Shown here one piece after another: positions 3 through 63,352 of a DNA stretch of 64,000 bases. The stretch is taken from positions 62,001-126,000 of the IMG/VR virus record IMGVR_UViG_3300008255_000103; one strand, 5' to 3'. The notes below the pieces were generated by a model. It made no database searches and was not told the DNA's origin. It saw nothing but the letters and a program-made list of their open reading frames with translations. The stretch's first letter is position 1, and each line of letters opens with the position of its first letter. The translations under genes and the position numbers were made by a program. Source of the DNA: an uncultured virus (IMG/VR IMGVR_UViG_3300008255_000103). Taxonomy: Duplodnaviria > Heunggongvirae > Uroviricota > Caudoviricetes.

Positions 3-3000
3 CATTGGTAAGTTTCTTGTAGATAAATTCATTGTGTTATTCTGTGTTGATGGTAAAATAAACTCAGAGTTCTGCAATGATGAATCTGCCAATGTATCTA
101 ATAAGTATAATAAATTATTTTGTATTGTTGTGTTTATAACATCATACGTTGATAATGCTGATAATACTTCACTACTATTTGCACTAACAGTTGATACTCT
201 TTCTAATTTGATTAGCTTTGCTAATCTTACATTAGATGGTACAGATGTAGAAGAACTAATATCTAAAGCTTTACGTAAAGCTTCTGACAAATTTAATTGT
301 AATCCATTAGCGGTTGCAGTAAAGATAATATCAGTAGCCTTTGTGATAGATGTTCCACTTACAGACATAACTCCAGTGCTAACTACTTGATCAATAGTTG
401 TACAATTCAATCTGGTTTGTGCCCTACGTAAGTTGTTAAAATTATAGAACATAACAAAAACACCATCATTATTATTAGCGCTAATACTGCTAGGTAACAA
501 CAATCTATTATTAGAAATTTGTATTGTTCCTGAATAATTCCATATTTCTTTTCCGTCTAAAACTCTAATAATTGAGATTTGATCGTATGTTATATGATCT
601 AATTCATTAGATATCGTTATTTTATTATTTGTTGAGTTATACGATAAGATATCATATAATCCGTTATTATTTGGATCTGTTGCACCAGAAATTATTAGCT
701 TCTTAGATGTTAAATCTGCTTGTGAAGCAAAACTTATGGTAGAACTACTTACAATACCTGTACCAGTTCCTACAGTTAAATATCCATCAGTTACTGAAAA
801 TAGCTCTATATCTGTATTAGGTTCTATTATAGTGAATGTTAAACCAGATGCTTGAGCCACAAATTTATTTATAGATACCATAAATCTACTGGTAAGAGGC
901 TCAATAGATAATGTATCTACTCTATTTTTAATTATTATATTACTAAAACTATATGGCTGATATCTTCTTAAATCTGTAGCATAATATACAACTAAACATT
1001 TATCATTAAGCGCGGGAATGTTGTATCCAGTAAAAATAAGCTGATAATTACCCGGTGTACTTGTTGCAATAGTTCCTGGATTTTCAGAGTTCCATAACTC
1101 TAGATTATCTGATAACCTAATAACAGAAATTATTTGACCAGTAGATAATGAAAATTCTGTACTGTTAATAGCTAATTCTACATAAAATTGACTGCTTAGG
1201 TTTTGCTGTACTGTAGCATTTTCTCTTCTAGATATATTTGTAATACTAAAGTTATTAAATCCCGTATTATTTGATAATGTAAACCCATTTCCAGTTCTAC
1301 TACATGGTAATGATGTTGTGGCTGAAGAAAACAGATCAGTTACTGCAGCTACATATGTTACTTTTAATAAAATAGATGTGGCTAATGTATCAATTAATGA
1401 TGCAGGTATAGTTATCTGTGTTCCGCTAATACTTCCATTAGTTGTGTCAGAATAAAATACATCGATGCTATTCATATAAACAGTTACAATGTCTCCAACT
1501 TCTACTACACAATCAGTTGGTAAGATAATAGTAATATTATATAGAACTTGAATTCCAACGACAGTTGTTTCATTAATAATAGTTCCATTCCCCTCAGAAG
1601 TATTATATAGTTCTATATTGCTATTTTTAATAGTTATAGAATCTATAGTCTCTGCTGATACTGAATGATTTCTTACTATTACCGCTAGTCTATTAACATA
1701 TACGCCTGATGTAATAGTTTCTACATACGTATCTGCACTAACAAATGTTTTTGCGGATACAATTGAGCTTATACTGTGTGTAGATGTTCCTACAAAAAAG
1801 TTATTACTAACATTTTTCTCAAACCAAATATTTTCATCTGTAATCATTGAGGAATATCCCCAATCAACGCTGTCAGTAACTGATCGAGGATTAGATGTAT
1901 ATTCTAAGCCATCATAGTCAGAATATTGATCATAAGTTATTATCCAATTATAATCAACCTGTAATACATCGCTTGGAGATGGTAATGTATTTCCTGATAT
2001 TTTTATTCTACCAGTTGTATTATATGTTCCTGTAGCATCTAGATTTTGATTTGTGATAATATACCTTTCACCAGTATTAACATTAAATACTCTAGTAACA
2101 TTTGTTGCAGGATAATGTAATAATTGTATTACTGACCTATCATAAGTAATTGTACTATTCTCATTATTTATTGAAATAAACTGTTGAGCTTTAGGTATAC
2201 TTGAAACATCTGGAAAAGATACATTATCTTGACCATTAAATTGAGATTTTACCCTATCTTCTTGATATAAAGATACACGATCTGAAATCCAATGAAAAGT
2301 ATCAAATCCCCAAGGACCACCACTATAAGCCCCAGTATCTTTAAGGAGTTCATAATTACCAGAAATACGACCATAGGAATCTACTGTTTTCTCTTTAAAA
2401 TTTGAACCACTAATTGAGCCTGTAACTTGTAGCAAATTTTCTACTGGCTGTTTTGGTAAAACTCCATTTGCAATATTATCAAGTCTTTTTCTATTAATAG
2501 TTTTATTTTTATCTCCCGTAATCTGTCCTAATACAATATTATTTTTAGAACTAGACTGGTCATTATTGTTGCTTTTATCAACATAAATAATACTATCTGT
2601 GTTTTCAACTAAAGTAGATCCTAAGACGACAACATCAACTTTTCCACCAGAACCTTCTGACACTACTGTTCTAGAGCCGTCTGCATTAACAGTTACGGTT
2701 GTTCCGTCACGAGTCATTAATGAATCACCGGGCTCAATAACTACAGCATCAGATACTCCTGTTGTGCTTAGCGCTGTATTTAAATATCCTAATGCAGTTC
2801 CAACACTAGATCCGCTAAACGCCGCCAATACTCTGTTTCTAAAAGAAACATCATCTTCTTGGTCTGCGCCGCCGTTAAATGCACTAATATTTGTAACATT
2901 ACTAACACCAGGAATAGATGTTCTATTCAAATAATAACTACCTATATTACCAATTGAACCCGCAGAAGATGCAGCAACAGTAACTTCAACAGCATATTCA

Positions 3001-3452
3001 TCAGAAATTCCTAAAAGATCTAATTGTGTTCTATATTTTGTAGCTACAGATCTATAGTAATTAGAAGCTAAAGGAGTAACAGATAAGCCATTTGATACTG
3101 AGAAAGAAAATCCATTAGATGCGATTATGACATCACCAGAATTAATGTTAACGGGTGCATTTAAGCTAGAAAATGTTAGTAAAGCGATTCCGGATGATGA
3201 TGTTGATCTTTTTCTTACAATTCCAAAATTTTTAGCTAATTGGTTAAGTTCATTACCAATAACTAACCTAAAAGATTGTTTATTAGAAATCCCAGATAAT
3301 TCATCATATAATAAAGATAGCTGCGTTGCCGGTGCTTCTACAAATAAATCTCTAGCAACAGAACCAGGTGTAATATCTAAATCTGGTTGAGCAATTCTAT
3401 AAAAATCGATTAAACTTAATATAATCTCATTAACGCTACGGATCGTTACCAT
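3..3452 (-). CDS. Baseplate J / wedge (gp6-like) protein, large, 3'-truncated by the window edge (missing from the ORF track)
   Basis: Manual translation from ATG at 3452: MVTIRSVNEIILSLIDFYRIAQPDLDITPGSVARDLFVEAPA...LNQLAKNFGIVRK...AGSIGNIG...NGGADQEDDVSFRNRVLAAFSG...GVSDAVVI...GGKVDVVVLG, typical of Baseplate_J. GAGGA Shine-Dalgarno just upstream; follows the gp25-like gene. Confidence 0.88.
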   Translation of the reverse strand, partial: MVTIRSVNEIILSLIDFYRIAQPDLDITPGSVARDLFVEAPATQLSLLYDELSGISNKQSFRLVIGNELNQLAKNFGIVRKRSTSSSGIALLTFSSLNAPVNINSGDVIIASNGFSFSVSNGLSVTPLASNYYRSVATKYRTQLDLLGISDEYAVEVTVAASSAGSIGNIGSYYLNRTSIPGVSNVTNISAFNGGADQEDDVSFRNRVLAAFSGSSVGTALGYLNTALSTTGVSDAVVIEPGDSLMTRDGTTVTVNADGSRTVVSEGSGGKVDVVVLGSTLVENTDSIIYVDKSNNNDQSSSKNNIVLGQITGDKNKTINRKRLDNIANGVLPKQPVENLLQVTGSISGSNFKEKTVDSYGRISGNYELLKDTGAYSGGPWGFDTFHWISDRVSLYQEDRVKSQFNGQDNVSFPDVSSIPKAQQFISINNENSTITYDRSVIQLLHYPATNVTRVFNVNTGERYIITNQNLDATGTYNTTGRIKISGNTLPSPSDVLQVDYNWIITYDQYSDYDGLEYTSNPRSVTDSVDWGYSSMITDENIWFEKNVSNNFFVGTSTHSISSIVSAKTFVSADTYVETITSGVYVNRLAVIVRNHSVSAETIDSITIKNSNIELYNTSEGNGTIINETTVVGIQVLYNITIILPTDCVVEVGDIVTVYMNSIDVFYSDTTNGSISGTQITIPASLIDTLATSILLKVTYVAAVTDLFSSATTSLPCSRTGNGFTLSNNTGFNNFSITNISRRENATVQQNLSSQFYVELAINSTEFSLSTGQIISVIRLSDNLELWNSENPGTIATSTPGNYQLIFTGYNIPALNDKCLVVYYATDLRRYQPYSFSNIIIKNRVDTLSIEPLTSRFMVSINKFVAQASGLTFTIIEPNTDIELFSVTDGYLTVGTGTGIVSSSTISFASQADLTSKKLIISGATDPNNNGLYDILSYNSTNNKITISNELDHITYDQISIIRVLDGKEIWNYSGTIQISNNRLLLPSSISANNNDGVFVMFYNFNNLRRAQTRLNCTTIDQVVSTGVMSVSGTSITKATDIIFTATANGLQLNLSEALRKALDISSSTSVPSNVRLAKLIKLERVSTVSANSSEVLSALSTYDVINTTIQNNLLYLLDTLADSSLQNSEFILPSTQNNTMNLSTRNLPM

Positions 3453-3454
3453 AA

Positions 3455-4713: not shown

Positions 4714-6396
4714 TTATATCGAACTATTATTTTGACGTTTATCTAAATAGAGTTTATCCATCAGGTTAAAAAAGTCTTTTACTGTATTCGTTAAAGTTCC
4801 CATACATTGAGATAAATTATCTGTTCTTACAGCATCAGGCTTATTTAACAGGGTTTTCATTCTTTCAAAAGCATCTTTATCTAAAAATCCTAACAAATCT
4901 TCTATTGGCATGATATACAAAGATGCAATAATTGCTAAAATATCACATAAACCAAGACCGCTAAATTCTCCCATTATCATTTCAATAATTTGTAGAGCAT
5001 CACAAGCTTTTTTCATAGTATTATTGCGTGCGAATGTTAATGATTTAACAGTATCATCATTAATATCTCCACAAGAAGCGTTCACTTCAGGATTAAATAT
5101 CATTGCATTACTTGGAAATATGGGTTTTCTCGTAATTGATTCATATCCTACGCTTGCAGCTGTTTGACCTATAAATTTTTCTATAGAAGCTCTAATAAGA
5201 TCTGCATCATAACTTGTAATAAATTTTGGATTATTAGCTAATTCTTTAGTTATAATAATAGGTCTAACAGAAGACCCTCCTTCTGGACCAGTCGTTGATG
5301 GTATTGGTATCCAATAATAGAACTTTTGAGCCTCTTCTATAGTATTTTGAGCTTGCACTAATTTATTAATCATAGCTCGCATAATATTTAAATATTGAAT
5401 AAATCTTTGTTGCTCAGTTAATTTATAATCTTTAGTTATTCTTTCAATAAGACTTTCATCAGCAATAGACGGTACATTTTCTATATAATCTTTTATATTT
5501 TGTAATTCACCAGTAATATTAGATGTATCATCAGTGACACGATTATAAATTATCGTTTCTAACATTGGTATTTCAACTGTAACAGTTTCCGATGCAATTA
5601 GATTTTTAGTATCTAAAACAAATGGGACTGCCAACATTTTATCTATATTTACACTTTCAGAATATCTTGGATCAACTAAAAATGGATATAAAATATGAGT
5701 TCTATCAAAAGCAGTCTTAGGTAATGTTGGCGTAACCCCATCATCTCCAATATATTCTGTTAAACTTGGTTTATTATTACCAACATGCCCATTTTTATCT
5801 ATTGTATATGTTTGTTTTAATGAATCTAAATCAGCAGAAAAAACTTCTGGAGTTGTTACTTTATCTAATGGATCTATAAAATCTCTTTTATTCATACTCG
5901 ATAAAGCTAGAACTGAAGCATTTATAGATGTATTAATATTGAAAATATTAGCAAAGGTTTGATATGTCGATTCTCTAGTATCAAATAACTTAATTAATGA
6001 TGAAGTATATAATACCGTTGATGCAATTTTGATTTTATCTATTTTTTTGATTTTTTTTGTTTCATCAAAAATAGAATCATAACCAGGATTATAGAAATCT
6101 GTACCATCATATACTGGAAACCCAATCATTCTATAAAATGCGTGACATCTACTCTCTTGATATGTATTTTCTGCTTTTAATGAATTTCGTAATGAATTAT
6201 CTTTTATAGCCTTTACTATATTTGTAGGGGTTATACCATTAATACTCTTTTTACTCCTATAATTATCAATTCCATTTTGTTTAACTTTACTCGGTTTATT
6301 AGGGTTAACAAAACTATAGAACGCATCTTTAACATTAAAATCGAATCTTTGACGATTTTTATAGTTATTTTGATTTGTTTTATTTGAATCAACCAT
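4714..6396 (-). CDS. Hypothetical virion/baseplate-region protein
   Basis: 560-aa ORF coupled to the upstream gene (1-nt overlap) within the baseplate cluster; no recognisable motif. Confidence 0.6.
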   Translation of the reverse strand: MVDSNKTNQNNYKNRQRFDFNVKDAFYSFVNPNKPSKVKQNGIDNYRSKKSINGITPTNIVKAIKDNSLRNSLKAENTYQESRCHAFYRMIGFPVYDGTDFYNPGYDSIFDETKKIKKIDKIKIASTVLYTSSLIKLFDTRESTYQTFANIFNINTSINASVLALSSMNKRDFIDPLDKVTTPEVFSADLDSLKQTYTIDKNGHVGNNKPSLTEYIGDDGVTPTLPKTAFDRTHILYPFLVDPRYSESVNIDKMLAVPFVLDTKNLIASETVTVEIPMLETIIYNRVTDDTSNITGELQNIKDYIENVPSIADESLIERITKDYKLTEQQRFIQYLNIMRAMINKLVQAQNTIEEAQKFYYWIPIPSTTGPEGGSSVRPIIITKELANNPKFITSYDADLIRASIEKFIGQTAASVGYESITRKPIFPSNAMIFNPEVNASCGDINDDTVKSLTFARNNTMKKACDALQIIEMIMGEFSGLGLCDILAIIASLYIMPIEDLLGFLDKDAFERMKTLLNKPDAVRTDNLSQCMGTLTNTVKDFFNLMDKLYLDKRQNNSSI

Positions 6397-8612
6397 TAGC
6401 TACCATCCCTACCATTACCGCCATCTCTCGATGCATCCCCCTCATCTCTTCTTGGTTGACCAGTTTCATCACCAACAGAAACAGATCCAAGTCCAGCTGA
6501 AGCATAGATAAATTGATAATCTAGCTCTTGTAATGTATGCGTTGGTGGTAAGTTAATATCACTCGGAATATCATTGGTACAGAAGATATTATCGTCAAAA
6601 GAAATCATTAACTTACCTTTACCAGGTGTTTTGCTTGTAATGTCAGCAGTAAATACTTGATAGCCATCATAATTAAAACTAGTAATCTTACCAAAAGTAG
6701 AATGTGGTTTTATCTTTAAAGCAATATCAGATGCAACTTCTGGCGTTAATCCAGAAGTTATTGGATATCCATTTCTTTCATTAAGATTTACTGTAACCTT
6801 AATTGGCTTTGTTGTAAACTGTTTTTGTGGTTCCAAAGTAAAATTACTTTGGCAAGGATCAAACCCTAATCCAACCATAGTTCCAAGAGTTTTGTTTGTA
6901 TCATCTTTTAATTTTTGAAGACATGTTAAACTCGTTGCTTGGAATTCTGCAACACCAAGAACTGTAAAGTTACTTCTTAATGCAGATACCGCCGTTAATA
7001 AACATTCTTGAGCTTTATTTGGATTAGGAAATCCATTTTCTTCTTTCAATGCATCATTTAATATCGCTAATTTAAGCCCAGCATCACCAGCAATAACATT
7101 AGATATAAATTCTCTATCTACTGCTAATTCAGGCAAACAACCAAGGGTTACTAAATCCTTAGCAATTAATACAGATCTATTTGGTTTAAATGTATATTCA
7201 ACATTAGAGTATAGATAACCGTCTGTTGGCTGTGGGTTAGGAGAAATTAATGTAAGCTCTTGAGGCATATGTAAGAAATTACCTAGTGTAGCTTGAATTG
7301 TTCCAGGTGTTATTCCATCAGGAAGATATACTTTCAAAATGGTATTACCATCATCTTCATATCCCTCACCTCTAACTAATTTCATTACACCATTTGTAAT
7401 TGTAGAACTATCATTTTTATAATCTAATAGATTTCTAGTTGGAGCCATAACAACAATACAGTCTTTAAATCTAATGTAACGAGCAGCTCCTGCGCTCTCT
7501 CCATAACGTCCCCAATTTGCAGGTTCATAAAATAATCTTAAGTCTACTGTATAGGCAGCTTGTTTAGGAGATGTTGTATCATTATATGATGAGTCTGTTG
7601 GGAAAAACACTGGTTTAGGAGTATTAATAACCTTACCATCAGAGTTTACTGTTGGAATATCATAACCATCTACTATATTAATAAACGCCTGAGCAATAGA
7701 TTGATCTGGATCATATATTTGCCAGCTTTCTGTTCTATAATCAACGGTAAAGAATGGGTTTGGACCAGGTAATGCCAAAGATGTTTGTATACTTAATTGA
7801 TTATAATATTGTAATTTACCAGTAATTCTAGTATAATCATTCTTAACAATGACTGGACATACATCTGGAGTACAACAACCATCTTCATCTGTTGAATCAG
7901 TATCATCACAAGGAGGAATTGCAAAAACAAGACTTAGCATATCTCTAAAAATATCGATTATAATATTAAATATAGCTAATAGAACAAACAGGTTTTGGAA
8001 GATACAAAGTAATGCTCCAAGTTTTTTAGCAATCGCCAATATAGAATTCTCATCCACTCTAGTAGCAGCTTTATATAAAGCTTTAAGATTTCTCAAAATC
8101 ATCTTAATAAGCTTTATAATCTGTTGAATAATATACTCAATCAAAGCTAAAAGCAATAACAATAACGATATGATCATAATAATTAAAGCAAATAACGGAA
8201 ATAGATTTAGGAAATCTGGAAGACAATTTCTAAATAATCTTTTTAATGCTCTAGTCAATTTAAAAGGATTCTTAATTGCACATAACACTTCAATAATACA
8301 TAAAAGTAATTTCAATATTGGTAAGAAAAACTTATACATCATTAAATAAGGCATAAATTGATCTAGCAATTTCATTATGGCATCAAAGATATCTTTACCA
8401 AAATTTGGATTCAATGATGGTTTAAGAGCACCTGGTGGAATAAGCATTTGAAGCTTATTTAATAAATCCAACAAATCTTCTGGAAATCCTTCAGGAAAAG
8501 GATTAATATTGGGAAGTTTTAAAGAAAAGGGTGTCCCAAAACCAGGAATGGACGGACCGCTAGGACCATCTGGGATATCAAAAGATACATCGTTTGGAGA
8601 ACAAGGACTCAT
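6396..8612 (-). CDS. Baseplate-region protein with N-terminal hydrophobic helices
   Basis: 738 aa; long hydrophobic stretches (LFPLFALIIMIISLLLLLLALIEYII); Cys cluster PPCDD...GCCTPDVCP; three DGY motifs. Confidence 0.6.
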   Translation of the reverse strand: MSPCSPNDVSFDIPDGPSGPSIPGFGTPFSLKLPNINPFPEGFPEDLLDLLNKLQMLIPPGALKPSLNPNFGKDIFDAIMKLLDQFMPYLMMYKFFLPILKLLLCIIEVLCAIKNPFKLTRALKRLFRNCLPDFLNLFPLFALIIMIISLLLLLLALIEYIIQQIIKLIKMILRNLKALYKAATRVDENSILAIAKKLGALLCIFQNLFVLLAIFNIIIDIFRDMLSLVFAIPPCDDTDSTDEDGCCTPDVCPVIVKNDYTRITGKLQYYNQLSIQTSLALPGPNPFFTVDYRTESWQIYDPDQSIAQAFINIVDGYDIPTVNSDGKVINTPKPVFFPTDSSYNDTTSPKQAAYTVDLRLFYEPANWGRYGESAGAARYIRFKDCIVVMAPTRNLLDYKNDSSTITNGVMKLVRGEGYEDDGNTILKVYLPDGITPGTIQATLGNFLHMPQELTLISPNPQPTDGYLYSNVEYTFKPNRSVLIAKDLVTLGCLPELAVDREFISNVIAGDAGLKLAILNDALKEENGFPNPNKAQECLLTAVSALRSNFTVLGVAEFQATSLTCLQKLKDDTNKTLGTMVGLGFDPCQSNFTLEPQKQFTTKPIKVTVNLNERNGYPITSGLTPEVASDIALKIKPHSTFGKITSFNYDGYQVFTADITSKTPGKGKLMISFDDNIFCTNDIPSDINLPPTHTLQELDYQFIYASAGLGSVSVGDETGQPRRDEGDASRDGGNGRDGS

Positions 8613-46747: not shown

Positions 46748-48046
46748 TTATTCCTTTGGAAAAGCATATAACATAACACAAGGATCTCTTTGTATTTCTT
46801 CGAATTCATAATTTCCTAAAGACGATATCATCTTTTTTATATTAGGAACTATTTTAGAATCTAAAAATATATGGCATTCAACAAATAGTTTTGGTTTAAA
46901 TCTACTAATTGTTAGCATGCCGCCTTTTATAACATGCTCTTCTGCGCCCTCAACATCTATTTTTATCCAATCAAGCTTATTAATCATGTTTGTTTTAGTA
47001 AGTTGATCTAAAGTTTTCATGCTATAATCTTCTGAAATAGAGAACTTTGGCCAATGTGGAGCATATTCCTTCATATCAACCGTTGTTTCTGAACTCCATA
47101 AGCCAATATTAAAAGCAAAACATTTATCTTGCCAATTATTTAATTCTATATTTGAAACAAGATCGCAATATACTGATTTTTCAGGTTCAAATGCATAAAC
47201 TGTTGCTCCCATTGCTCTCGCAGTTAATGCATATGAGCCATATGATGCCCCAATATCAAAAACAACATCATCCGATTTTATTTTCCAATATTTATCTCTC
47301 AATTCTGCTTCTTCTGAATCAAAAGTAAAATAAGAATAATCTGGATGAGTGCTGCCCTTCATTATTTCAAATTGATTGCCATTAAAAATCTGTTTTTTAG
47401 TTTCCATTTGTTTTCCCATAGCATTTAAAGCATTTTGTATCTGCTCTCTGGAATAAAGATTCATTTTTCTTATTGGAAATTTGCCATTTTGATCTGAATC
47501 ATCAATAAAATCTATTGGGTCTGGAAAATTAAATGGTTCCAACTTCCAATTTATCTCTTTAAAATCACCATCTGCTAAAAGATTAATATTTTTAATACAA
47601 TTAGGATGATTACTCATCAAAATATAAGGTATATTACTTCTTACAAAATTTGATAATGCAGCGACTTTATTTTTTGTTGATAAATGAAACAAACAATCTC
47701 GGCAAAATAATAAATCTGCCATTGGCAAAACATCTTCTGTTATATCTAAATGAACAAACTCTTTATCTGGATAATTCTGTTTATTAAATTCTATTTGACT
47801 AAGTACAATATCAGCTCCAATATATTTAATATTGCCAAATTTTAAAGTACTCATCCAGTTAAAATTACCACATGGACAATCAAAAATACTTTTGATATTA
47901 TGTTTAATTAAAAATGGAATAAAACCATGTCTAATACTAAATGTATAATCTAATGTACTGCCAGGTCCACAATGACCGTCTGCTTTATAGTCTTTAGTTA
48001 TATCATATTTTTTGGATATTTGTTCTAGAATCTTATTCATTACCAA
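46748..48046 (-). CDS. Two-domain methyltransferase (class I SAM domain + FkbM family)
   Basis: GPGSTL...FDCPCGNFNWM...YIGADIV; second half VFDIGASYG, AFEPE, KIDVEGAE. Confidence 0.85.
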   Translation of the reverse strand: MVMNKILEQISKKYDITKDYKADGHCGPGSTLDYTFSIRHGFIPFLIKHNIKSIFDCPCGNFNWMSTLKFGNIKYIGADIVLSQIEFNKQNYPDKEFVHLDITEDVLPMADLLFCRDCLFHLSTKNKVAALSNFVRSNIPYILMSNHPNCIKNINLLADGDFKEINWKLEPFNFPDPIDFIDDSDQNGKFPIRKMNLYSREQIQNALNAMGKQMETKKQIFNGNQFEIMKGSTHPDYSYFTFDSEEAELRDKYWKIKSDDVVFDIGASYGSYALTARAMGATVYAFEPEKSVYCDLVSNIELNNWQDKCFAFNIGLWSSETTVDMKEYAPHWPKFSISEDYSMKTLDQLTKTNMINKLDWIKIDVEGAEEHVIKGGMLTISRFKPKLFVECHIFLDSKIVPNIKKMISSLGNYEFEEIQRDPCVMLYAFPKE

Positions 48047-49143
48047 TTAATTCCATTCTTAATCATTTCATATTCTGCAAGATAAGATTTTGCCATAACA
48101 TGTCGATCAAAACGAATAATCGCATGCTCTCGGCAAACTTTAGGATCAATATTATCTATCAACTTAATTGCAGATACAAAATCTTCTACATTAGAGTCGC
48201 ATAAGTAACCAGTTACACCATGTGTTATTGTTTCTAGTAAAGCCCCAATCCTAGTACATATAACTGGAGTTCCACAAGCCAAAGCTTCTGGTTGTTGTAA
48301 TCCAAAAGGCTCTTGAAATTGAACTGTATTTATAAATGCTTTTGCTTGTTGATATAATTCTCGTTTAGCTTCATGATGATAAGGGTCGCCAGGAAGCCAC
48401 TCAAAAGTTATATTTGGATAATCTGATGCTAAATCAACAGCTTGATAAGCGCATTTTTTTTGATAAGCACATGAGATTCTATCTGGATGATCTCCTGCCA
48501 TAATCAAATTTATTCCTGATTTCTTAGCAACCTCAATTGCTAATCTATAACCCCTAACTTCATGCCACCTTCCTAACCACAAAAAATAGTCTTTTTTGTC
48601 ATAAGTTGGAGTATACCAGTCTGTATTTATTCCATAATAACTTACATGTGCATTTTTAACTGGTTCATAGCTTTGCTTTCCAAAATAAGGCACATTGGTA
48701 TTTTCATAATCTGTAGCACCTCTTAATGCTCGGTCTCTCATATTAACTGATGAACATACAATATTATAAGCTGGATTTGGATGATCCCAAACACCACCAA
48801 GAGGAGATGATATAACATTTCGTTTTCCTTCAGCATATAATATTTCTGCAATACGTTTTTTTATGCTAAAATCATGAATAACATCTAAGTTACGTAACAC
48901 TTCAGCATGCATTTCAAAACACTGTTGTTCACATGTCTCACCAGTAGGAACATCTTGTCCATCAGAGCACGGCATCTCAAATAATTTAACACCATCAATA
49001 CATTTTGTTCCAAATGGAGCAAATAAACTAATTTCATGTCCCATTTCAACTAAACAATATACAAGGTCTAATATAAAGAACTCTCCTGAATGTTTAGGAG
49101 ATGGTATTGGATGAAAATGTGTTGCAATTATTCCTATTTTCAT
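48040..49143 (-). CDS. Glycosyltransferase family 4
   Basis: GHEISLFA, LWLGR...RG, EPFGLQQPEALACGTPVI. Confidence 0.9.
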   Translation of the reverse strand: MKIGIIATHFHPIPSPKHSGEFFILDLVYCLVEMGHEISLFAPFGTKCIDGVKLFEMPCSDGQDVPTGETCEQQCFEMHAEVLRNLDVIHDFSIKKRIAEILYAEGKRNVISSPLGGVWDHPNPAYNIVCSSVNMRDRALRGATDYENTNVPYFGKQSYEPVKNAHVSYYGINTDWYTPTYDKKDYFLWLGRWHEVRGYRLAIEVAKKSGINLIMAGDHPDRISCAYQKKCAYQAVDLASDYPNITFEWLPGDPYHHEAKRELYQQAKAFINTVQFQEPFGLQQPEALACGTPVICTRIGALLETITHGVTGYLCDSNVEDFVSAIKLIDNIDPKVCREHAIIRFDRHVMAKSYLAEYEMIKNGINW

Positions 49144-49829
49144 TTGATTGCTTCCGAAATAAAACTATGCGTCATGCCTGCATCTACTATAACGTTAGCC
49201 ATATTGGGATCTTTACTTTTGCCAGACATATTGTAAAATTCTATTTTCTTAAAATTTGCTTCAGACAAAAATTTGGTCATAGAACTTTTATTATACATAC
49301 ACATATGTCCTTCATAGAAATCCCAAGTACAATTCTCGCCACAAGCGCCAAACATTAAATAAGATAACTGTAATGAAGGCTCTGCGTTACTATAAAATAG
49401 TGGTTGCTCACTAGCAAACTTATACATTTTATTATTTATGTAAGCATCTATTAAAATATCTAAATCTGGAGTTGTTATCCTGATAACTCCACCAGGCTTT
49501 AGCATTCTATAACATTCTTTTAATAATCTTGGCACTTCAAAAATTGGATTTAAATGTTCAATTACTTGACCAATATAAATAGAAGTAATACTATTATCTT
49601 CATGTTGCGCAAATCCTTGTCTTAAATCATGAATGCGGAAATCAAAATCTTCGCCATTTTTAAGAAATTTTACACATTGTTGAACACTTTCGGCATACAT
49701 GCTCAAATCACTATTTACACTTGTTCTTAAAAAATGTAAATAAGTTGCGAAATCAGCACGATCATAGTTAATCCATGTTGTTGGTAACATAATTGGACCA
49801 CAACCAATATTTAATCTTACTTCTTGCAT
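49140..49829 (-). CDS. Class I SAM-dependent methyltransferase
   Basis: LNIGCG, HDLR, VIEHL...ECYRMLKPGGVIRITTPD. Confidence 0.85.
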   Translation of the reverse strand: MQEVRLNIGCGPIMLPTTWINYDRADFATYLHFLRTSVNSDLSMYAESVQQCVKFLKNGEDFDFRIHDLRQGFAQHEDNSITSIYIGQVIEHLNPIFEVPRLLKECYRMLKPGGVIRITTPDLDILIDAYINNKMYKFASEQPLFYSNAEPSLQLSYLMFGACGENCTWDFYEGHMCMYNKSSMTKFLSEANFKKIEFYNMSGKSKDPNMANVIVDAGMTHSFISEAIK

Positions 49830-49830
49830 C

Positions 49831-52278
49831 TTATTTTCTATATGGAGTTGTAGGATAATATGGAATCATTGGATCAGTTTTTGATTTTTCAATCATATCA
49901 TAAAACATCTTTTCCCAATCTTTAGCTAAAGAATCTAATCCAAAATTCTCTTTTGCATATTCCTGTAATACTAATCTATCATCTTCACTATTATTAAACA
50001 TTGCATTAATGACTGCGCTGATAAAATTATTCTTATATTCTGAAGTTGTCCAATCACCAGGTATTAATGTCCCTCGTTCTCCTACTGTTTCATTTAAAGC
50101 TGCAATACTTGATGTAACCATACGCAATCCAGCAGCTTGAGCTTCCATTGCAGTAATACAACTTGTTTCAGTAAACCAAGTAGGATGTATCCAACAACCT
50201 GCACTTAAAAATTCAATTGCCAATTCATCTTGATTTACTCTATCATGATAAAAAACACCCAATGACTCCATATCTTTTATTTGTTTCTTAAGTCTACTAA
50301 TTAAATCAGCCTGTCCCTGATCATATTGTGCAGAATATTCCCAATTTTTGAAACCATAAAATAAATGTAATTCTGCCTTTGGAACATGTGCCTTAATAGT
50401 TGTCCAACATTCTAGCAAAATTGGCCAACTTCTATCAGGACTACTACTATTAACTGCTTTAAATCTATTTCTTGGAACTTTTTTATTAAATCTGTTTAAA
50501 TCAATTCCATTTCTAGTAACTGATACTTGTTCTGGATTAATATTATGTACTCTAATGATATTATTTTTATGCCAATCAGATAACGCTAATACCTTATCTG
50601 TTTTTAATAATAATTCACTGGTCGCACCATTAGCAATTACATCATGAACCCATAACAATGTTACTTTTGCTTTTACATTATACTTATCTGCTAACATAGA
50701 TGCATGACGTGATACAACCAAGATATCGCATTCTAAATTAGCATATTTTTCAGTTCTATAATATTCAACACGATCATAAATTCCTTCATTATTTCCACAA
50801 CTATTATAAACACGAACTCTATGACCTAAAGCAGCTAATCTTTTAGCCTGCTCAATTAACATTGTTTCGCTTCCACCAATTCCAAACTGTTTTACACTTA
50901 TTGGTGTCCAAATTTCAACTCCATTACCTGCAAAAAAGATAATATCAAGCTTACCACCAATAGGTTCGGCAATTGGTTCATCAACTTTTTGAGGCAATAA
51001 TGCATCTTCATCAGCTTTGTTTTTTATTATAACCTTTTTATCTATTATACTGGTCATTAATGATATTGATGCCGCATCTAATTCACCAATTTTTTCTAAT
51101 TCTTTTATAGATTTGTAAATTTGACGATGTAATAAGTTTATTTCATAAAGACGTTTATTTAACAAAAATGCCGGCTCAGTTGGTTCATATCTTAATCCTC
51201 TATTTACGCTATCTAAAGCCTCTTCTATTCTTCCAAGCTTATTTAATGCAAAATTATAGTATTTATGAATTTCATATTCTCTATCTGCAGGATTTATGAA
51301 CAAAAGTGTTTTAGTTTCAGAACAACCAAGACCTAATTTAATGAAATAAACACATCTTTCCCAATTGCGTATTTCATCTCTTCCGCCCTGCTGTGCCAAA
51401 TAATAGAATATTCGACCTAAAGCAAGATAGCCTTCTGCCCAAGATTCTTTAATAGCTACCGTTTTAAACGCCCACTTAAGTGCAGATTCATAATCTTGAC
51501 GCATTTGATAAATATCAATCAATTTTAAGCAAGCCATTGCTCGCTCATCATCCCAACCAGATACATCTATATATTTTGATAAACGCTCAATTGCCTCATC
51601 CATTAAATTAGCATTATAGCACTCAAGACCTAAATAATATAATTGGCGAGGGTCAGAATCTCCATGCTTTTCAAAATATGAACGTAAGATCCTTAAATTA
51701 CGACCAAATTCTTGTACTTTTTTACTAAGATATCTTTGATGTTTAAATAAAACATCTTCTACTGTTTGGAAAAAACAAGAAGGATCTTTATTAATCAATA
51801 CTTCATGAACTGGATTTACCCAATGAAATCGATCTTTATTATAAACTAAACGCTCTCTATAATGATAACATGTACATTTTCCATTGCTATCATATGCGTA
51901 TTCATATGGAAACATTAAACATACTGATTTATCTTCACTATCTGGAAGATAATCTTGGATTATTTTTAATAGATTTTCACCTTTAGTAATAATATCATCT
52001 GCATCAACCCACAATACCCATGGTTGAGTTGCTAAATCAAATGATCTTTGTCTCGCTTGTGAAAAACTTTCAATTAATCCAGTTTCAGAATTATTGCAAT
52101 CTGTATATACTTCAAAAATATCAGCATATTTTTTCGCAATTTCAGGAGTATTATCTGTTGAACCAGTATCAACAATAACAATTTCTGAAACATAATCCTT
52201 TATTGAATTCAAACATTGTTCTAATAATGGTTCATCACGAACAATTAAACATAGTGAAATAGGCGCGCGTTCAATCAT
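49831..52278 (-). CDS. GT2-TPR-GT4 fusion glycosyltransferase
   Basis: ISLCLIVRDE, IVDTGSTDNT, FSQARQ, WVDADD, VHEVL (GT2); TPR-like helices (YYLGLEC, YLALGRIFY); GIGGSE...ETSCITAMEAQAAG (GT4). Confidence 0.9.
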   Translation of the reverse strand: MIERAPISLCLIVRDEPLLEQCLNSIKDYVSEIVIVDTGSTDNTPEIAKKYADIFEVYTDCNNSETGLIESFSQARQRSFDLATQPWVLWVDADDIITKGENLLKIIQDYLPDSEDKSVCLMFPYEYAYDSNGKCTCYHYRERLVYNKDRFHWVNPVHEVLINKDPSCFFQTVEDVLFKHQRYLSKKVQEFGRNLRILRSYFEKHGDSDPRQLYYLGLECYNANLMDEAIERLSKYIDVSGWDDERAMACLKLIDIYQMRQDYESALKWAFKTVAIKESWAEGYLALGRIFYYLAQQGGRDEIRNWERCVYFIKLGLGCSETKTLLFINPADREYEIHKYYNFALNKLGRIEEALDSVNRGLRYEPTEPAFLLNKRLYEINLLHRQIYKSIKELEKIGELDAASISLMTSIIDKKVIIKNKADEDALLPQKVDEPIAEPIGGKLDIIFFAGNGVEIWTPISVKQFGIGGSETMLIEQAKRLAALGHRVRVYNSCGNNEGIYDRVEYYRTEKYANLECDILVVSRHASMLADKYNVKAKVTLLWVHDVIANGATSELLLKTDKVLALSDWHKNNIIRVHNINPEQVSVTRNGIDLNRFNKKVPRNRFKAVNSSSPDRSWPILLECWTTIKAHVPKAELHLFYGFKNWEYSAQYDQGQADLISRLKKQIKDMESLGVFYHDRVNQDELAIEFLSAGCWIHPTWFTETSCITAMEAQAAGLRMVTSSIAALNETVGERGTLIPGDWTTSEYKNNFISAVINAMFNNSEDDRLVLQEYAKENFGLDSLAKDWEKMFYDMIEKSKTDPMIPYYPTTPYRK

Positions 52279-52333: not shown

Positions 52334-53182
52334 TTATGCTGCTTTTGTAATCGTCAAACCGCTGCCATTAGGATTCATTATTATTGGTGTTCCTCCAGAA
52401 TTTATAGCGGCTTGAATCTTAATCTTATCTCCAGATGAAATATCCATTATTATAGTAGCTCCACTAGTAGCTTTACCCTGAGTCGCCTGACGATTATACA
52501 TCCAAACAACAGTACCTCCAATTAACCCATAACCACTACCAGTATCTATCATCAATTGTGCATAGCTGTCACTTCTGGTAGTACCAGTAGTAAGATTAGT
52601 AGTTACATAAAAACTAATTAAATATGTACCAGTTGTATTTATTGTTACTTCAGCAGAAGAAGCTGTGTGTGTAAAATCAGAAGTTTTATTTCTTTCTGTA
52701 TCCAACGGCACATCAGTTAAACCTGCACTAATATTTGTACTACTAGCCGCATCATATGCATGAAAATAAGCAGGAGTAATACTAGCCGGTCCAGTAGGAC
52801 CAATTGGTCCCGTTGCTCCCGTTACGCCTGGACTACCTTGAGGTGCTCCAGCAGGACCTGTAGCTCCAGTAACACCAGCAGGACCTGTAGTGCCAGCAGG
52901 ACCTGTAGCTCCAGTTACACCGGGTGAACCTTGAGGTCCAATAGGTCCAGTTACACCTGTAGCACCGTCTGCACCAATAACTTTAAGAATAACTTCATCA
53001 ACAATTGTTCCGCCATATGGAGCAGTACCTTGATAAGCACCATCAGGAGTATCAGTTTGCCAATATACATATGCAGTAGGAACAGAACCATTATCATCAC
53101 GACCACGCTTATAATAAGTCGTAACTGAAGGCGCTCCCGCACCACCAAAAGTTACTGTCCATTCTCCACTATAATCAACCAT
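52334..53182 (-). CDS. Short collagen-like fibre protein with C-terminal C1q/BclA-like domain
   Basis: ~20 Gly-X-Y triplets then AYFHAY...[13 protein letters not shown]...GDKIKIQ. Confidence 0.75.
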
Positions 53183-53185: not shown

Positions 53186-56100
53186 TTATCCATCCTCTAC
53201 TTCAATAAATGCTGAAGATACCTGTACAAAATCAGTATCATTTGCGCCCGTATCTAATTTAGCATGTAATTCTACAGAACGCTCTCCAGCAGTTATTGTA
53301 AGTGGTCCAAGAGTCTTTGATTGTAATGTAGTATTATTGTCAGTAATGTACCCGTCGATATAATATCCATCATAAACATCATATAACCTGATTGTGTATG
53401 TTTGTGCATTATCTACTTCACACGCTACTCTTAATGTATATATAGCACTTCCAGAATAATCTGCAGTATTTAATATTCCAGAACCTAATCTACTATAAAT
53501 ACTAAGATTTGTAGCAAATAAACCAGCTGCTAAACTTATTATTGCATTTCCTGCAGATCCAGTTGCTGATCCTGCTGGTCCCGTAGCTCCTTGAGGTCCT
53601 GTAGCTCCAGTTACACCGGCAACACCAGTGGCTCCTTGAGGTCCTGTTGCTCCAGTAACTCCCTGTTCACCTTGAGGTCCTGTTGCTCCAGTTACTCCGT
53701 CTATACCCGTAACTCCTTGTGGACCGGTTGCTCCCGTAACTCCATCTTGACCTTGTGGACCTGTAGCACCGGTTACACCGGGACTTCCTTGAATACCTTG
53801 AACTCCAGTAGCTCCCTGTGGACCAGTAGCACCCGTAACTCCGTCTATACCCGTAGCTCCTTGCGGACCAGTTGCACCAGTTACTCCGGGTGAACCCTGA
53901 ATGCCTTGAGGTCCTGTAGCACCAGTTACTCCAGGACTTCCTTGAATACCTTGGAGACCTGTAGCACCCTGAGGTCCAGTTACACCATCTGCACCAGTAG
54001 CTCCTACTGATCCTGTAGCTCCTTGTGGACCAGTAGTTCCGGTAACACCATCAATACCAGTTGCACCTTGTGGTCCTATAGCACCTGTTACACCTGGTGA
54101 TCCTTGAATACCTTGTATACCAGTAGCTCCTTGAAGTCCTGTAGCACCAGTTATACCAGGACTTCCCTGAATACCTTGAGGTCCTGTAGCTCCTTGTGGA
54201 CCAGTAGCTCCCGTTACACCAGGAGATCCTTGAATGCCTTGTGGACCAGTTGCTCCAGTTACACCAGGAGATCCTTGAATGCCTTGTGGACCAGTTGCTC
54301 CAGTTACACCAGGAGATCCTTGAATGCCTTGTATACCAGTAGCTCCTATTGGACCTGTTGCGCCCGTTACACCAGGACTTCCTTGAATACCTTGGGGACC
54401 TGTAGCTCCTTGTGGTCCAGTCGCACCCGTAACGCCAAGAGCAACATCCAAAATATCTAATGCAATTTGAACATTTGATGCAGCCGTTCCAACAAGAATT
54501 CCAGTAAATCCAGTGGTATCAACAGAAATTGATGTTGCTGGATGAGCATTCGTTGCATCTCTATTAATTAAAGAATTATGATCTGTAGGAGAATAACTAC
54601 CTACTGGTGTTGATGCATCATTTCTATAATCTACAACATCCCTTAGTGCAGAATATTTTATAGTAGAAGAATATGCAGCCTTATATTGATAAATTAATCT
54701 ATATATAAGTTTCATTTCCGGAGTAATTAACCCAGAAACAAATATAGATGCTGGGCTTGCTGCCGTTTGAGCATCAAATAATGATCCATAATAATTATCA
54801 TGAGGAATAGATATAATTGGATCATAACTATCATTTGATGCAAAAATCCAAACAACAAAAAAATCTGTGATAGGAACATCAGTTAATTTCCACCCAGTTC
54901 CACCACCAACATTCTCATTATATTGAGGAATATTAGATACAGAACCCCATGGGAATGGGAATGAATTTGAGGCTATTTTTCTCCATGCAGGAGTTGTCCC
55001 AAATTTATATAGTACAGGGATTTGTCCAGGATTTGCTGGTAAAGTTCCGCCCAAATTTTGTTCATAAGGATCTGTGCCAGTTCCATTTATTATATCATGT
55101 TCTAAATCTTCATCATCAACTGTTCCGCTAGTCATAGACACATAAGTATTAGTACCATCTGAGGCTGGAGTTCCCGTAGTAATTGCATTACTATCTAATC
55201 CTAATCCAGTTTCCCATCTCATTCCAAAATTATCATGTAAATATTCATGAGTTGCGTTGGACATTACAATTCCATGACGCTCATCTCCAAATATAGTAAC
55301 TGCGCCAGTATCATCTATATAAAGTAACGCTATCAATGCGTCATCTAATATATTAGCAGTTGTATTTTCCGTTAAATATCCATCAACTGAAGAATAATAA
55401 ACCCAATGCACACCTACAGAATTAGTTACTGGAATAGATTCTGTACTCTTTATATATTTAACAGCACCAGCATAAATAACAAAGTTAGTTCCAGTTATCG
55501 TTAATGTCAGTCCAGACATTGATATTGAAGATTGTGTTCTGTCTTCAAATCCATTATTTATGACTTGAATTGGTCCTGTAGAACCAGTAACACCAGGAGA
55601 TCCTTGGTTACCTTGCGGTCCTGTTGGTCCAGTAGCTCCTGTTGCACCTTGTGATCCTGTGGCGCCTGTAACTCCATCTGTTCCAGTTACACCTTGAATA
55701 CCTTGAGGTCCAGTAGCTCCTTGTGGACCAGTAGCTCCTGGTTGACCTTGAGGTCCAGTAGCACCTGTAACACCATCTACACCTGTAGCGCCTTGCAAGC
55801 CAGTTACGCCTTGAGGTCCTGTAGCTCCAGCAGGACCTGTTGCGCCTGTTGCGCCTGTTACACCATCTGCTCCCGTTGGTCCAGGTTCACCTTGAGGACC
55901 TGTAGCTCCAGCGGGACCAGTTGCACCAGTAATTCCTGGGGAACCAGTTGGTCCTGGTTCACCTGTTGGTCCAGCAGGACCAGTTACACCATCTTGACCA
56001 GCAGGACCTGTTGCACCAGCGGGACCAGTTGCTCCAGTTACACCGTCAACACCATCAACTCCTTGTGCTCCAGTTGGTCCAATTGGACCTGTAGCTCCAG

Positions 56101-56443
56101 CAGGACCGGTTGCTCCAGCGGGACCAGTAGCTCCTGTTACACCATCAACACCATCAATGCCTTGTGTTCCAGTTGCGCCTTGTGGACCTGTTACACCGGC
56201 AGGACCTGTTGCGCCAGCAGGACCGGTTGCACCGGTTACACCGGGAGATCCTTGAGGTCCACCAAAAGGACCAGTAACACCAGGAGATCCTTGTGGACCT
56301 TGCAAACCAGTAGGTCCAGCAGGACCAGTAGCTCCAGCAGGACCTGTTGCGCCAGTTGCGCCAGCGGGACCTGTAGGACCTGTGATACCGCCACCAGATC
56401 CAGATGGAACTCCTTTTATTTGGTTTGCATTAACTTTGCTCAT
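53186..56443 (-). CDS. Long collagen-like fibre protein (two Gly-X-Y blocks around a globular domain)
   Basis: GAT/GPT/GVT/GPQ/GSP triplets in two blocks of ~90 triplets; central ~380-aa non-repetitive domain; three DGY motifs. Confidence 0.85.
54190..54332. repeat. 45-bp tandem repeats encoding [15 protein letters not shown]
   Basis: Three near-identical CCTTGTGGACCAGTWGCTCCMGTTACACCAGGAGATCCTTGAATG units. Confidence 0.8.
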
Positions 56444-58053: not shown

Positions 58054-60298
<2,245 letters not shown>

Positions 60299-62655: not shown

Positions 62656-62656
62656 T

Positions 62657-62686
62657 AGATTATTCAATCAAAGATTATTCAATCAA
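62657..62686. repeat. Perfect 15-bp tandem duplication
   Basis: AGATTATTCAATCAA x2 abutting the stop codon of 62687..63352. Confidence 0.85.
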
Positions 62687-63352
62687 TTAGAACTGTGGAT
62701 TGAAGTGGAATACTGCCCATGCATAAGTTCTAGTACCAAGAGCCGAAGCTAAGTAATTTGGAGTATTTACCAAAGAACCATTGGTTTCGAAGCTTACAAA
62801 GTGACCGACTACGATTGTGTTACCACCAGCAGCAGTACTTCCAACTGGAGTTAACTTTCCACCTACGGTTGCGGATGCTGGTACCCAAGTTAATGAAGTT
62901 CCAGTATCAAGAGCTGCATTTCCAGGGACTAAGCCGTCTGCTGCTTGGTCACAAGCTGCATCTAAGGTTACTGCATAAAGTCCTGGCTTATCCCAAAGAG
63001 TGACTTTGCCAGATCCAGTAGCGGTGTGAGGACCTAAGACTGCGCCACCAGTTGCTACTTGACCAACTGTTCCACCGACTACAGATCCAAATAGAGTTCC
63101 ATATCCAGTGATACCATCATCAGCTAACATCAATGGACGAGCAGAGGTTGCTACGTTACGAGTAACAACAACTCTCTTTAAAGAATTAACATATCCATCA
63201 AATACATCATAAGCAGCTTTATCAGTTGCAGAAGTTGCGACAACAGATGCAAAAGTAACGACTTCGCCGCCCATAAGGGTTAATACTTCTGTATCAAGTC
63301 CATCGAACTGACCTAATGGTTGAACACCCGGTTGTAAAAGTTTTAGAGCCAT
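62687..63352 (-). CDS. Putative head decoration / capsid stabilising protein
   Basis: Gly/Ala/Thr-rich, upstream of the MCP, GSGKVTLW...G.Y.V motif, own terminator. Confidence 0.65.
   Translation of the reverse strand: MALKLLQPGVQPLGQFDGLDTEVLTLMGGEVVTFASVVATSATDKAAYDVFDGYVNSLKRVVVTRNVATSARPLMLADDGITGYGTLFGSVVGGTVGQVATGGAVLGPHTATGSGKVTLWDKPGLYAVTLDAACDQAADGLVPGNAALDTGTSLTWVPASATVGGKLTPVGSTAAGGNTIVVGHFVSFETNGSLVNTPNYLASALGTRTYAWAVFHFNPQF

Follow-up and report, generated by a model that had tools for sequence, protein, structure and literature searches.

Why would a single three-residue word recur over the outer proteins of a virus particle, and what, if anything, reads it? The question is raised by a DNA stretch of 64,000 nucleotides (the window), which corresponds to positions 62001-126000 of a 138,879-bp single-contig record of an uncultured virus (IMG/VR IMGVR_UViG_3300008255_000103) and in which the tripeptide Asp-Gly-Tyr (DGY) is repeated in several predicted structural proteins. 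In this study, the source record is labelled G000, its closest relative (354 kb) G001, and further genomes of the clade G002-G004 and so on; individual loci are given L-numbers. DGY is a tag-like exact word on the outward-facing virion proteins, found clade-wide at about ten times the frequency expected by chance, and both its Asp and its Tyr are required.

DGY in the proteins of the window

The window was translated as 51 non-overlapping open reading frames (ORFs; 20,621 amino acids, aa), and the expected counts were calculated with a composition model (order 0) and with a first-order dipeptide model that preserves the DG and GY counts. A first-pass annotation, made from the letters alone, had counted about 31 DGY by hand and had predicted only a handful by chance. 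Exactly 31 were found in the 51 ORFs, with the same distribution over the proteins, against 4.4 expected by composition and 6.55 by the first-order model (Poisson p = 1.9e-16 and 4.4e-12, respectively), and the span reported at that time, 780..63199, coincides with the outermost DGY codons of the window. The control tripeptides, described there as rare, were at chance, namely DGF 3 (4.1 expected), NGY 3 (4.6), and EGY 4 (3.4). DGW was found once, and the remaining five orderings of D, G, and Y showed observed/expected ratios (O/E) of 0.5-1.7. The top tripeptides of the window overall were derived from collagen repeats (GAT 77, TGP 67, and GVT 41); outside these repeats, DGY was the most over-represented. 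An artefact of amino acid composition or of turn preference was ruled out by the first-order model and by the near-neighbour words, which stayed at chance.

At the nucleotide level, the minus (coding) strand had 32 copies of the pattern GAYGGNTAY and the plus strand a single one; 31 of the 32 corresponded to in-frame DGY codons, for which six codon combinations were used. Because the sites are in frame and their codons vary, the signal belongs to the protein and not to the DNA; a DNA-level motif was ruled out by these strand-specific matches and mixed codons.

The proteins carrying DGY are all encoded on the minus strand. The baseplate-J-like protein (3..3452; Pfam Baseplate_J, E = 3.8e-17; phrog_6), which is cut by the window and has a full ORF of 1365 aa, contains one DGY at residue 889 (window 780-788), and this site is kept in G001. 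A 738-aa protein of the baseplate region (6396..8612), for which neither Pfam nor PHROGs gave a match, contains three (residues 315, 464, and 649), all of which are kept in G001. In the 934-aa tail sheath protein (21114..23918), Phage_sheath_1 and its 1C family matched residues 729-930 below threshold and phrog_23 matched residues 541-928; the three DGY at 147, 419, and 515 thus lie N-terminal of the sheath core (approximately 541-930), as had been proposed. A 281-aa protein adjoining the sheath (24047..24892), formerly called a tail completion protein, has one at residue 140. The large fibre protein (1963 aa, 25771..31662) carries seven, at 390, 466, 629, 633, 830, 1640, and 1802, and a conserved 522-aa protein (33515..35083), which is probably a neck or whisker protein, carries five, at 20, 159, 176, 179, and 220. 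These are followed by a 299-aa protein (37149..38048), formerly called an adaptor, with DGY at residue 111; a 122-aa Ig-like protein (38060..38428) with five, at 23, 28, 33, 38, and 56; and a 105-aa protein (41051..41368) with one at residue 29. The long collagen-like protein (1085 aa, 53186..56443; Pfam Collagen, E = 4.5e-83), which consists of Gly-X-Thr-type repeats, has DGY at 354, 1025, and 1030. Finally, a 221-aa Gly-rich protein encoded beside the capsid gene (62687..63352), formerly called a decoration protein, has DGY at residue 52 (window 63191-63199), and its orthologue in G001 (87% identity) retains the site.

The absence of DGY from the sugar/patatin operon, the HNH proteins, the CCA enzyme, the capsid, the tube, the tape measure, and the 1656-aa hub, which had been stated in the first-pass annotation, was confirmed. 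Among the virion proteins, the large ones that are presumably internal (hub, tape measure, tube, tube initiator, capsid, and proteins of 696 and 560 aa) contained no DGY. When the 12.7-fold enrichment was applied to their expectation of approximately 0.84, the probability of finding none was approximately 2e-5. The description of the copies as often doubled held in part: doubled copies and a fourfold array do exist, but close pairs numbered 8 against 5.4 ± 2.0 by random placement, which was not significant. In the clade sample described below, the number of close pairs was significant (108 against 36.8), but that sample is non-independent.

Enrichment across the record and the clade

The whole 139-kb record contained 89 DGY against 9.8 expected. 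When the record was split into protein classes by annotation, the 59 enzyme, replication, sugar, and homing-endonuclease proteins (16,128 aa) contained 3 DGY against 2.40 expected, and the remaining 62 proteins (virion modules and unknowns; 28,686 aa) contained 86 against 6.76. The densest proteins outside the window were an 815-aa protein and a 600-aa beta-roll protein with 10 each, followed by a 401-aa collagen-headed fibre with 7 and by fibres of 2387 and 1348 aa with 7 and 5, respectively.

IMG/VR holds 76 loci with an orthologue of the 522-aa protein (hereafter the 33515 protein). In these loci (approximately 21 kb each, G+C 27-45%), we counted 1099 DGY against 81.9 expected, with O/E values of 0.7-1.3 for DGF, NGY, EGY, DGW, and SGY. 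After removal of identical proteins, 946 DGY remained against 76.7 expected, and DGY was the top tripeptide. A second sample, consisting of 79 loci around a clade-core glycosyltransferase gene of family GT4, gave 871 DGY against 87.0 expected. The O/E values of DGS, DGT, DGF, NGY, EGY, and DGW and of the permutations of D, G, and Y were all near 1. In G001, the DNA pattern of DGY was clustered in structural modules. Altogether, DGY was carried by more than 25 different proteins.

Comparisons outside the clade were set aside. Bacillus phage G was considered as sharing the enrichment (gp420-431, 14 DGY against 3.0 expected) and was rejected, since two repeat motifs shared by paralogues account for 9 of the 14. 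In that region (NC_023719, 326-343 kb; L003), gp424-gp427 share the motif ...NGRHT-DGY-WYVRG... in six copies, and a second repeat, ...LV-DGY-LVKIGG..., occurs in three; both are paralogous domain repeats in large tail proteins. Counts of the DNA pattern over whole genomes against a reversed-pattern control were too noisy for comparing genomes; Bacillus phage 0305phi8-36, for example, gave 49 against 13, and its sites were scattered over both strands with no clustering.

Structural setting of the sites

The residues around DGY were scarcely constrained. The flanking information was at most 0.36 bit per position, and 873 distinct 19-residue contexts were found among the 946 sites. Lys, Glu, and Arg were depleted near DGY, and Trp, Gly, and His were favoured directly after the Tyr.

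Loops were assigned by DSSP on AlphaFold models of two proteins. In the model of the 33515 protein, residues 1-210 (pLDDT 82-91) form two N-terminal FN3/Ig-like domains, and the best Foldseek matches were the phage 812 neck and FN3 arrays. DGY 20-22 lies in a hairpin between strands 12-17 and 24-28, the pair at 176-181 lies within a loop or bridge region, and DGY 220 falls in a part of low confidence. By DSSP, three of the five sites were thus in a loop or bridge, one in a strand, and one in the low-confidence part. The 122-aa protein was modelled as an Ig-like sandwich (pLDDT 86) with weak matches to Ig V-like folds and with strands at 3-7, 12-18, 44-49, 64-67, 70-76, 85-94, and 101-110. All five of its DGY are predicted to be in loops: the first four fall within the long loop 19-43, the fifth within the loop 50-60. 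The first-pass annotation had regarded DGY as a tag inserted into surface loops of unrelated structural proteins. The exact word and the outer proteins agree with this, and the predicted loop positions in both models are compatible with it, apart from the one strand site and the one in the low-confidence part. These findings suggest that, on the neck, the sheath insert, the baseplate rim, the fibres, and the decoration protein, DGY is placed in beta-hairpin turns and in loop insertions of Ig/FN3-like and fibre domains, and that it is under selection there.

Other conserved features of the 33515 protein were also observed. Its Cys-rich middle has invariant C322, C324, C336, and C339, and its C-terminus has three invariant His-x-His motifs (H474/476, H500/502, and H515/517), which are similar to the His-x-His repeats that bind metal in the trimeric fibres of phages.

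Evolution of the sites

Between G000 and G001, 48 of 64 aligned DGY were conserved (75%), against an identity of 46.6% when every aligned tripeptide was counted. The two DGY-rich proteins that had diverged most kept similar numbers at different places: 10 DGY in G000 and 9 in G001 with four shared positions in one, and, in the large fibre, 7 and 5 with two shared positions.

Clustering of the proteins from the 76 loci gave 20 families of eight or more members, and DGY was concentrated in a few of them. The large fibre family (55 members) had a mean of 5.1 DGY per protein (range 2-11) over 43 site columns, 38 of which were occupied in under 20% of the members. The corresponding values were 4.1 (1-10), 29 columns, and 24 columns for the 33515 family (63 members), and 2.3 (0-10), 21 columns, and 19 columns for the 122-aa family (45 members). 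In these three richest families together, 81 of the 93 site columns had an occupancy below 20%. Other families of similar size, namely the 35084 family (57 members), the patatins, and the HNH proteins, had no DGY. Some columns were well occupied: residue 220 of the 33515 family was nearly invariant (DGY in 72 of 77), the site of the 24047-ORF family (40 members) exceeded 80% occupancy, and the site column of the 37149 family (52 members) contained DGY 43 times, DGF 4 times, and DGH 4 times.

The sites arose by different routes. In an alignment of 33 members of the 122-aa family, DGY was gained through inserted stretches of differing length, which lie in three loops. Gain by change of an existing turn was also observed, for example from SNGAR or ASGVR to SDGYR, and the routes differed from site to site, as in DGS/DGT to DGY, DAY/DQY/DKY to DGY, and SGF/AGF/NGF to DGY. 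In one column, loss of the D was accompanied by replacement of Y by F (SGF 15, AGF 5, and DGF at most 1), although this single column may represent few events. Where D-G was kept, the Y was replaced mainly by Ser or Thr when counted by sequence (117 of 173); counted by column, the preference was modest (T in 10, S in 8, and F in 5 of 107 columns). Conservation of a hydroxyl at the Tyr position is therefore suggestive only.

Two loci, which represent a sister lineage and serve as a natural negative control, had lost nearly all sites. L050 (16.8 kb) and L077 (11.6 kb) are syntenic with window positions 33-42 kb and with the hub region, and they contained 2 and 1 DGY, respectively, against 0.7 expected in each. 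In their orthologues of the 33515, 38060, 37149, and 41051 proteins, the sites were replaced by NGT, NGF, DGT, and similar turns; the 41051 orthologue of L050, for example, had no DGY. A scan with a single DGY-poor orthologue from L050 matched only itself. Since these loci keep the proteins but replace the sites, the folds do not need DGY. Taken together, the sequence comparisons indicate that selection maintains the number of DGY rather than their position.

The sugar operon of the window

The first-pass annotation had proposed as the simplest model that the neighbouring GT2-(TPR)-GT4 operon (window 41416-52278) uses DGY as its acceptor sequon, and the position of this operon among late structural genes is in favour of it. 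The patatin gene and the ten-gene sugar operon (41416..52278, minus strand; assigned by Pfam) comprise, in addition to the patatin, genes for an oxidoreductase, an NDP-sugar epimerase/dehydratase, a C-methyltransferase, a cupin, a GT4-like protein, an FkbM methyltransferase, a GT4, a methyltransferase, and an 815-aa GT2...GT4 fusion. In NCBIfam, the GT2 domain of the fusion (49831-52278) matched best to SunS, a family of peptide S-glycosyltransferases (TIGR04195; E = 6.6e-15), which hints at a protein or peptide acceptor, but its score was far under the cut-off (54.9 bits against 350). The TPR part of the fusion was not found by Pfam. A second GT2 of the record (G000 12673-13749) also had SunS as its best NCBIfam match (E = 7.5e-17; 61.3 bits, below the cut-off of 350). 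Both matches cover the GT-A domain only, and both GT2 genes adjoin collagen-like fibre genes. SunS-like GT2s were sporadic in the clade, with a match in 10 of 22 records, 3 of which were true orthologues.

The operon did not follow DGY among the relatives. The block of approximately 18 kb that contains the sugar operon, three collagen-like genes, two unknown ORFs, and the gene of the CCA-adding enzyme (window 42282-60253) is replaced in G001 by four unrelated ORFs between the patatin and capsid genes (213935-219795). No orthologue of the 815-aa transferase was found in G002, G003, G004, or phage G, and its counterpart in G001 was only a 23%-identical GT2 located elsewhere in the genome. Nevertheless, G001 without the operon keeps equal DGY counts (for example 5/5, 3/3, and 3/3), an outcome that the first-pass annotation itself had named as refuting the link. 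Because G001 lacks the cassette and keeps the DGY counts, the operon of the window does not appear to be the reader of DGY, and we consider its role as such highly improbable.

Instead of a clade-wide reader, the sugar operon and the collagen-like genes appear, from their distribution, to be an accessory cassette that is inherited together. The collagen-like protein adjacent to the operon (52334..53182, minus strand; Pfam Collagen, E = 5.6e-8) has a BclA-C-like head (BclA_C, E = 3.4e-7), and its gene has no syntenic orthologue in G001. A third collagen-like protein (59219..60253, minus strand; Collagen, E = 6.3e-18), with no DGY, also has a BclA-C-like head (BclA_C, E = 2.8e-5). The two BclA_C matches scored 30.6 and 24.4 bits, below the Pfam cut-off of 38 bits. 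Since the operon travels with genes of Gly-X-Thr collagen-like proteins, it likely serves those repeats; by analogy, it probably decorates the collagen-like proteins of the cassette. The patatin-like phospholipase gene (41416-42285; Pfam, E = 6.9e-30) lies at the edge of the structural block and is kept there in G001 and L050; it belongs to a family of 22 members across the loci.

A clade-core GT4 as a candidate reader

Another GT4 gene (375 aa, G000 47428-48555) was found outside the window, directly after two big fibre genes. Its neighbours in G000 encode two GT2s, an epimerase/dehydratase, and a 335-aa protein of unknown family. This GT4 was present in 32 of 45 records, including all 8 that were at least 90% complete, and the 13 records without it were 4-52% complete. 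Its E-x7-E motif was invariant in 21 sequences. The gene adjoined both fibre genes in all 61 loci with full flanks, and the GT2s and the epimerase were located there in 51 of the 61. No GT4 of this kind was found in phage G or in four other capsid relatives. The only glycosyltransferase that appears universal in the clade, judged by gene content, is this GT4, which makes it a candidate reader of DGY.

Based on these observations, we tentatively favour the reading that DGY is glycosylated on its Tyr by the clade-core GT4 module, although we hold it with less than even confidence. The virion proteins would fold in the cytoplasm and expose the D-G-Y turn. A phage glycosyltransferase would then recognise the turn and O-glycosylate the tyrosine; the enzyme would be the GT4 encoded after the fibre genes, accompanied in most genomes by the two GT2s, the sugar epimerase/dehydratase, and the 335-aa protein, and the exterior of the particle would become sugar-coated. 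A stronger form of this reading seems doubtful to us. In that form, DGY would be the first linear Tyr O-glycosylation sequon, read by a soluble GT4 and coating the outer surface of globally distributed phages of approximately 450 kb, with the number of sites under continuing selection like the glycan shields of animal viruses.

Several points weigh against the assignment to the GT4 module. We know of no GT4 that glycosylates tyrosine, and throughout we infer the identity of the reader. The phyletic ranges of GT4 and DGY coincide, with no case inside the clade that separates them and only outgroups to contrast; because the GT4 is a core gene like many others, its co-occurrence with DGY is non-discriminating. 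In two records, the GT4 matched in two adjacent frames (G012 165175-166292 and G035 51725-52721), which may reflect sequencing error, decay, or recoding, and the loci of these split-GT4 records were still rich in DGY (L024, 21 against 1.2; L078, 12 against 1.2). Two genomes, G003 and G007 (both 100% complete), are without any GT2, and their fibre loci were still approximately 8-fold enriched, indicating that the GT2s are dispensable for keeping the motif. Loci without GT2 did carry fewer DGY (mean 8.8 against 13.1 per locus; Mann-Whitney p = 0.0009), but a dose effect of the GT2s was not supported on the GT4 tree, where 4-6 independent pairs gave a median sign-test p of 1. Finally, DGY 159-161 of the 33515 protein was modelled inside a beta-strand.

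Alternative explanations

The same distribution over outer proteins and loops would also be expected if DGY remained unmodified and served as a distributed weak binding site. The Asp carboxylate and the Tyr ring, exposed on a tight turn, could then hold host surface glycans or a metal ion, with avidity from many copies, a role also proposed for the Ig-like domains of other phages. DGY is abundant on fibres and on proteins that contain lectin folds, and D and the Tyr hydroxyl are both needed, DGF and NGY being at chance. Such binding requires no enzyme and fits the persistence of DGY without GT2s or with a split GT4. However, a linear word of three residues is a poor stand-alone pocket, the nearly uninformative flanks show no pocket preference, binding surfaces usually accept F/W or N/E swaps that are not enriched here, and the neck and sheath sites are distant from the end that contacts the host. 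We therefore regard a binding role as rather unlikely, while still giving it appreciable weight. The exact word, the loops, and the selection on copy number are tag-like and would equally suit a signal for docking or assembly that is read by some other phage protein, not a transferase, such as a decoration or collagen-like head protein, a fibre chaperone, or a cross-linking partner; collagen-like proteins that end in globular heads are numerous in this phage. Against this, the collagen-like genes differ between close relatives where DGY does not, no conserved candidate reader was found, and the proteins hosting DGY differ so greatly in symmetry and position that they are unsuited to one partner; docking is accordingly an improbable explanation.

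A reader would be dispensable altogether if DGY were a structural beta-turn "dialect" spread by descent and by shuffling of fibre domains. D-G is a residue pair typical of tight turns, at many sites DGY has taken the place of an earlier N-G or x-G turn, some sites are near-invariant (in the 33515 family, for example, residue 220), and the apparent enrichment of phage G is such an artefact (6 DGYWYVRG and 3 DGYLVKIGG of its 14). The enrichment in the clade, in contrast, survives dipeptide correction, is shared by none of NGY, DGF, DGW, and DGT, and is dispersed over nearly as many contexts as sites. Inner beta-rich virion proteins and the enzymes of the same genome are at or under chance, and L050 and L077 replaced nearly all sites and kept the proteins, all of which makes a mere turn habit unlikely. 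Other Tyr or Asp chemistry, carried out by the phage, by the host, or spontaneously, could likewise be marked by DGY, including sulfation, phosphorylation, nucleotidylation, oxidative Tyr cross-linking, and Asp-Gly isomerisation. The combination of a Tyr hydroxyl with a neighbouring acidic residue and a turn-former is reminiscent of the sites of tyrosine sulfation, and Asp-Gly is the most isomerisation-prone dipeptide; aspartimide formation is the subject of reviews. Targeted searches, which were limited to two families, found Sulfotransfer_3 in none of nine clade genomes and Pkinase in three of the nine, none above the cut-off, and general Pfam scans of the 139-kb record suggest no conserved oxidase; we consider chemistry of this kind to have a low probability.

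Comparison with known systems

In the literature searched, the DGY motif was undescribed: among the matches listed, none of the papers on Asp-Gly-Tyr concerned phages as judged by title and the start of the abstract, the papers combining tyrosine glycosylation and phages all concerned toxins or contractile injection systems, and those found on jumbo-phage glycosylation dealt with other subjects.

The closest precedent for phage-encoded virion glycosylation is that of mycobacteriophages. Freeman et al. (2023, Cell Host Microbe 31:1216) reportedly demonstrated glycosylation of their virions by phage-encoded glycosyltransferases, the targets of which are said to be the C-terminal extensions, rich in Ser/Thr, that capsid and tail-tube subunits carry. 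As in those phages, cytoplasmic glycosyltransferases encoded by the phage adjoin structural genes here, with GT4, GT2, GT2, and epimerase genes after the fibre genes and the sugar operon in the window, and the exterior would be sugar-coated. Unlike in those phages, the capsid and tube are without DGY, and the putative acceptor is an exact tripeptide in loops of more than 25 proteins. The modification of mycobacteriophages is reported to have been demonstrated; the one considered here is putative.

Short sequons are established elsewhere. HMW1C-type cytoplasmic N-glycosyltransferases use N-X-S/T, and the general O-glycosylation of Bacteroidota uses the motif D-(S/T)-(A/I/L/V/M/T). DGY is similar in being a three-residue word with many sites per protein in many unrelated proteins; it differs in that the acceptor would be Tyr and not Asn, Ser, or Thr, and in that the word is statistically visible here only in the virion proteins of one phage clade. 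The existence of the general system in Bacteroidota is documented (PMC8698959). Neither a GT41 nor a lipid-linked pathway was identified.

S-layer glycans are assembled on a lipid carrier, and an O-oligosaccharyltransferase attaches them on the far side of the membrane, whereas phage virions assemble in the cytoplasm. To our knowledge, no DGY sequon exists in the S-layer systems that glycosylate tyrosine. Such tyrosine O-glycosylation has been described for S-layer proteins of Paenibacillus alvei and Thermoanaerobacter, and the likeness to the present case is that of a tyrosine as sugar acceptor on a surface protein, here putative. A general scan of the 112 proteins of the 139-kb fragment gave no O-oligosaccharyltransferase family among the Pfam matches. 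Toxin glycosyltransferases that modify Tyr, namely Yersinia Afp18, YeGT, and their relatives, are likewise described, and they illustrate that a soluble glycosyltransferase can use the hydroxyl of a protein tyrosine. These toxins, which aim at one residue of a host GTPase, are here called unrelated to the GT4 and GT2s, a sequence relation not having been sought.

For the operon of the window, and not for DGY, a parallel is found in the Bacillus exosporium, where collagen-like glycoproteins of the BclA type are accompanied by dedicated deoxy-sugar operons. As in that system, Gly-X-Thr repeats with a BclA-C-like head are encoded beside a dehydratase/epimerase, C- and O-methyltransferases, and several glycosyltransferases; the phage differs in the sub-threshold BclA_C matches noted above and in that its glycosylation is only predicted. 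In the window, collagen-like fibre genes and a sugar operon of their own make up a mobile cassette, parallel to the BclA glycoproteins of the spore surface.

If DGY is read by an enzyme, it would represent a new code for protein modification, a three-residue word with tyrosine as the acceptor, and huge phages would be seen to rework the outside of their particles systematically, with consequences for how hosts are recognised, how stable the particle is, and how adsorption traps are escaped. Without an enzyme to read it, DGY would be an unusual distributed motif of binding or chemistry, selected on more than 25 unrelated proteins. The motif is specific enough that it could mark virion-exposed proteins from sequence alone in this uncultured clade, and the 122-aa Ig-like protein with its five sites offers a compact, testable substrate.

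Gene content and relatives of the record

The G+C content of the window is low (30-42% over 4-kb windows), and its long ORFs are nearly all on the minus strand. Matches to Pfam and PHROGs in the window include the baseplate-J-like protein, a sheath initiator, a tube initiator, the tail sheath, a CCA-adding enzyme, several HNH-type endonucleases, three collagen-like proteins, and the patatin gene followed by the sugar operon. The major head protein matched phrog_2522 (E = 5e-78) and is 53% identical to the capsid protein of Bacillus phage G. The 33515 protein had no match in the phage collection; among metagenome proteins it had 837 homologues, many of them from contigs of 440-490 kb. The capsid similarity to phage G and these homologues on large contigs indicate that G000 is a fragment of an uncultured huge phage belonging to a large clade, whose members have genomes of approximately 450 kb. 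The genomes G002, G003, and G004 are 97-100% complete. A scan of genome contigs for relatives found none and gave no hint of a host.

Outside the window, G000 carries a TubZ/PhuZ-like tubulin gene (40152-41507; Pfam Tubulin, E = 7.7e-14; TubZ-like_C, E = 1.2e-6). Such genes are present in other very large phages too.

Genes of homing-type HNH/GIY-YIG endonucleases are unusually dense among the structural genes, and several are missing from the closest relative. They are located at window positions 3455-4222, 24861-25721, 36441-36968, 39484-40173, 40703-41032, and 61493-62644, and at G000 positions 2332-3048, 41877-42611, 48552-49262, and 132359-133141.

The major capsid gene of G001 is split into pieces of 239 and 95 aa that are 95-99% identical to the protein of the window, with an ORF of 276 aa between them (219795-221869, loci L084/L085; window counterpart 60328-62644). 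Judging from this arrangement, the interruption may be an intron or an insertion of a homing element. The capsid gene of the window (60328-61341) is unbroken, and an HNH ORF lies just past it.

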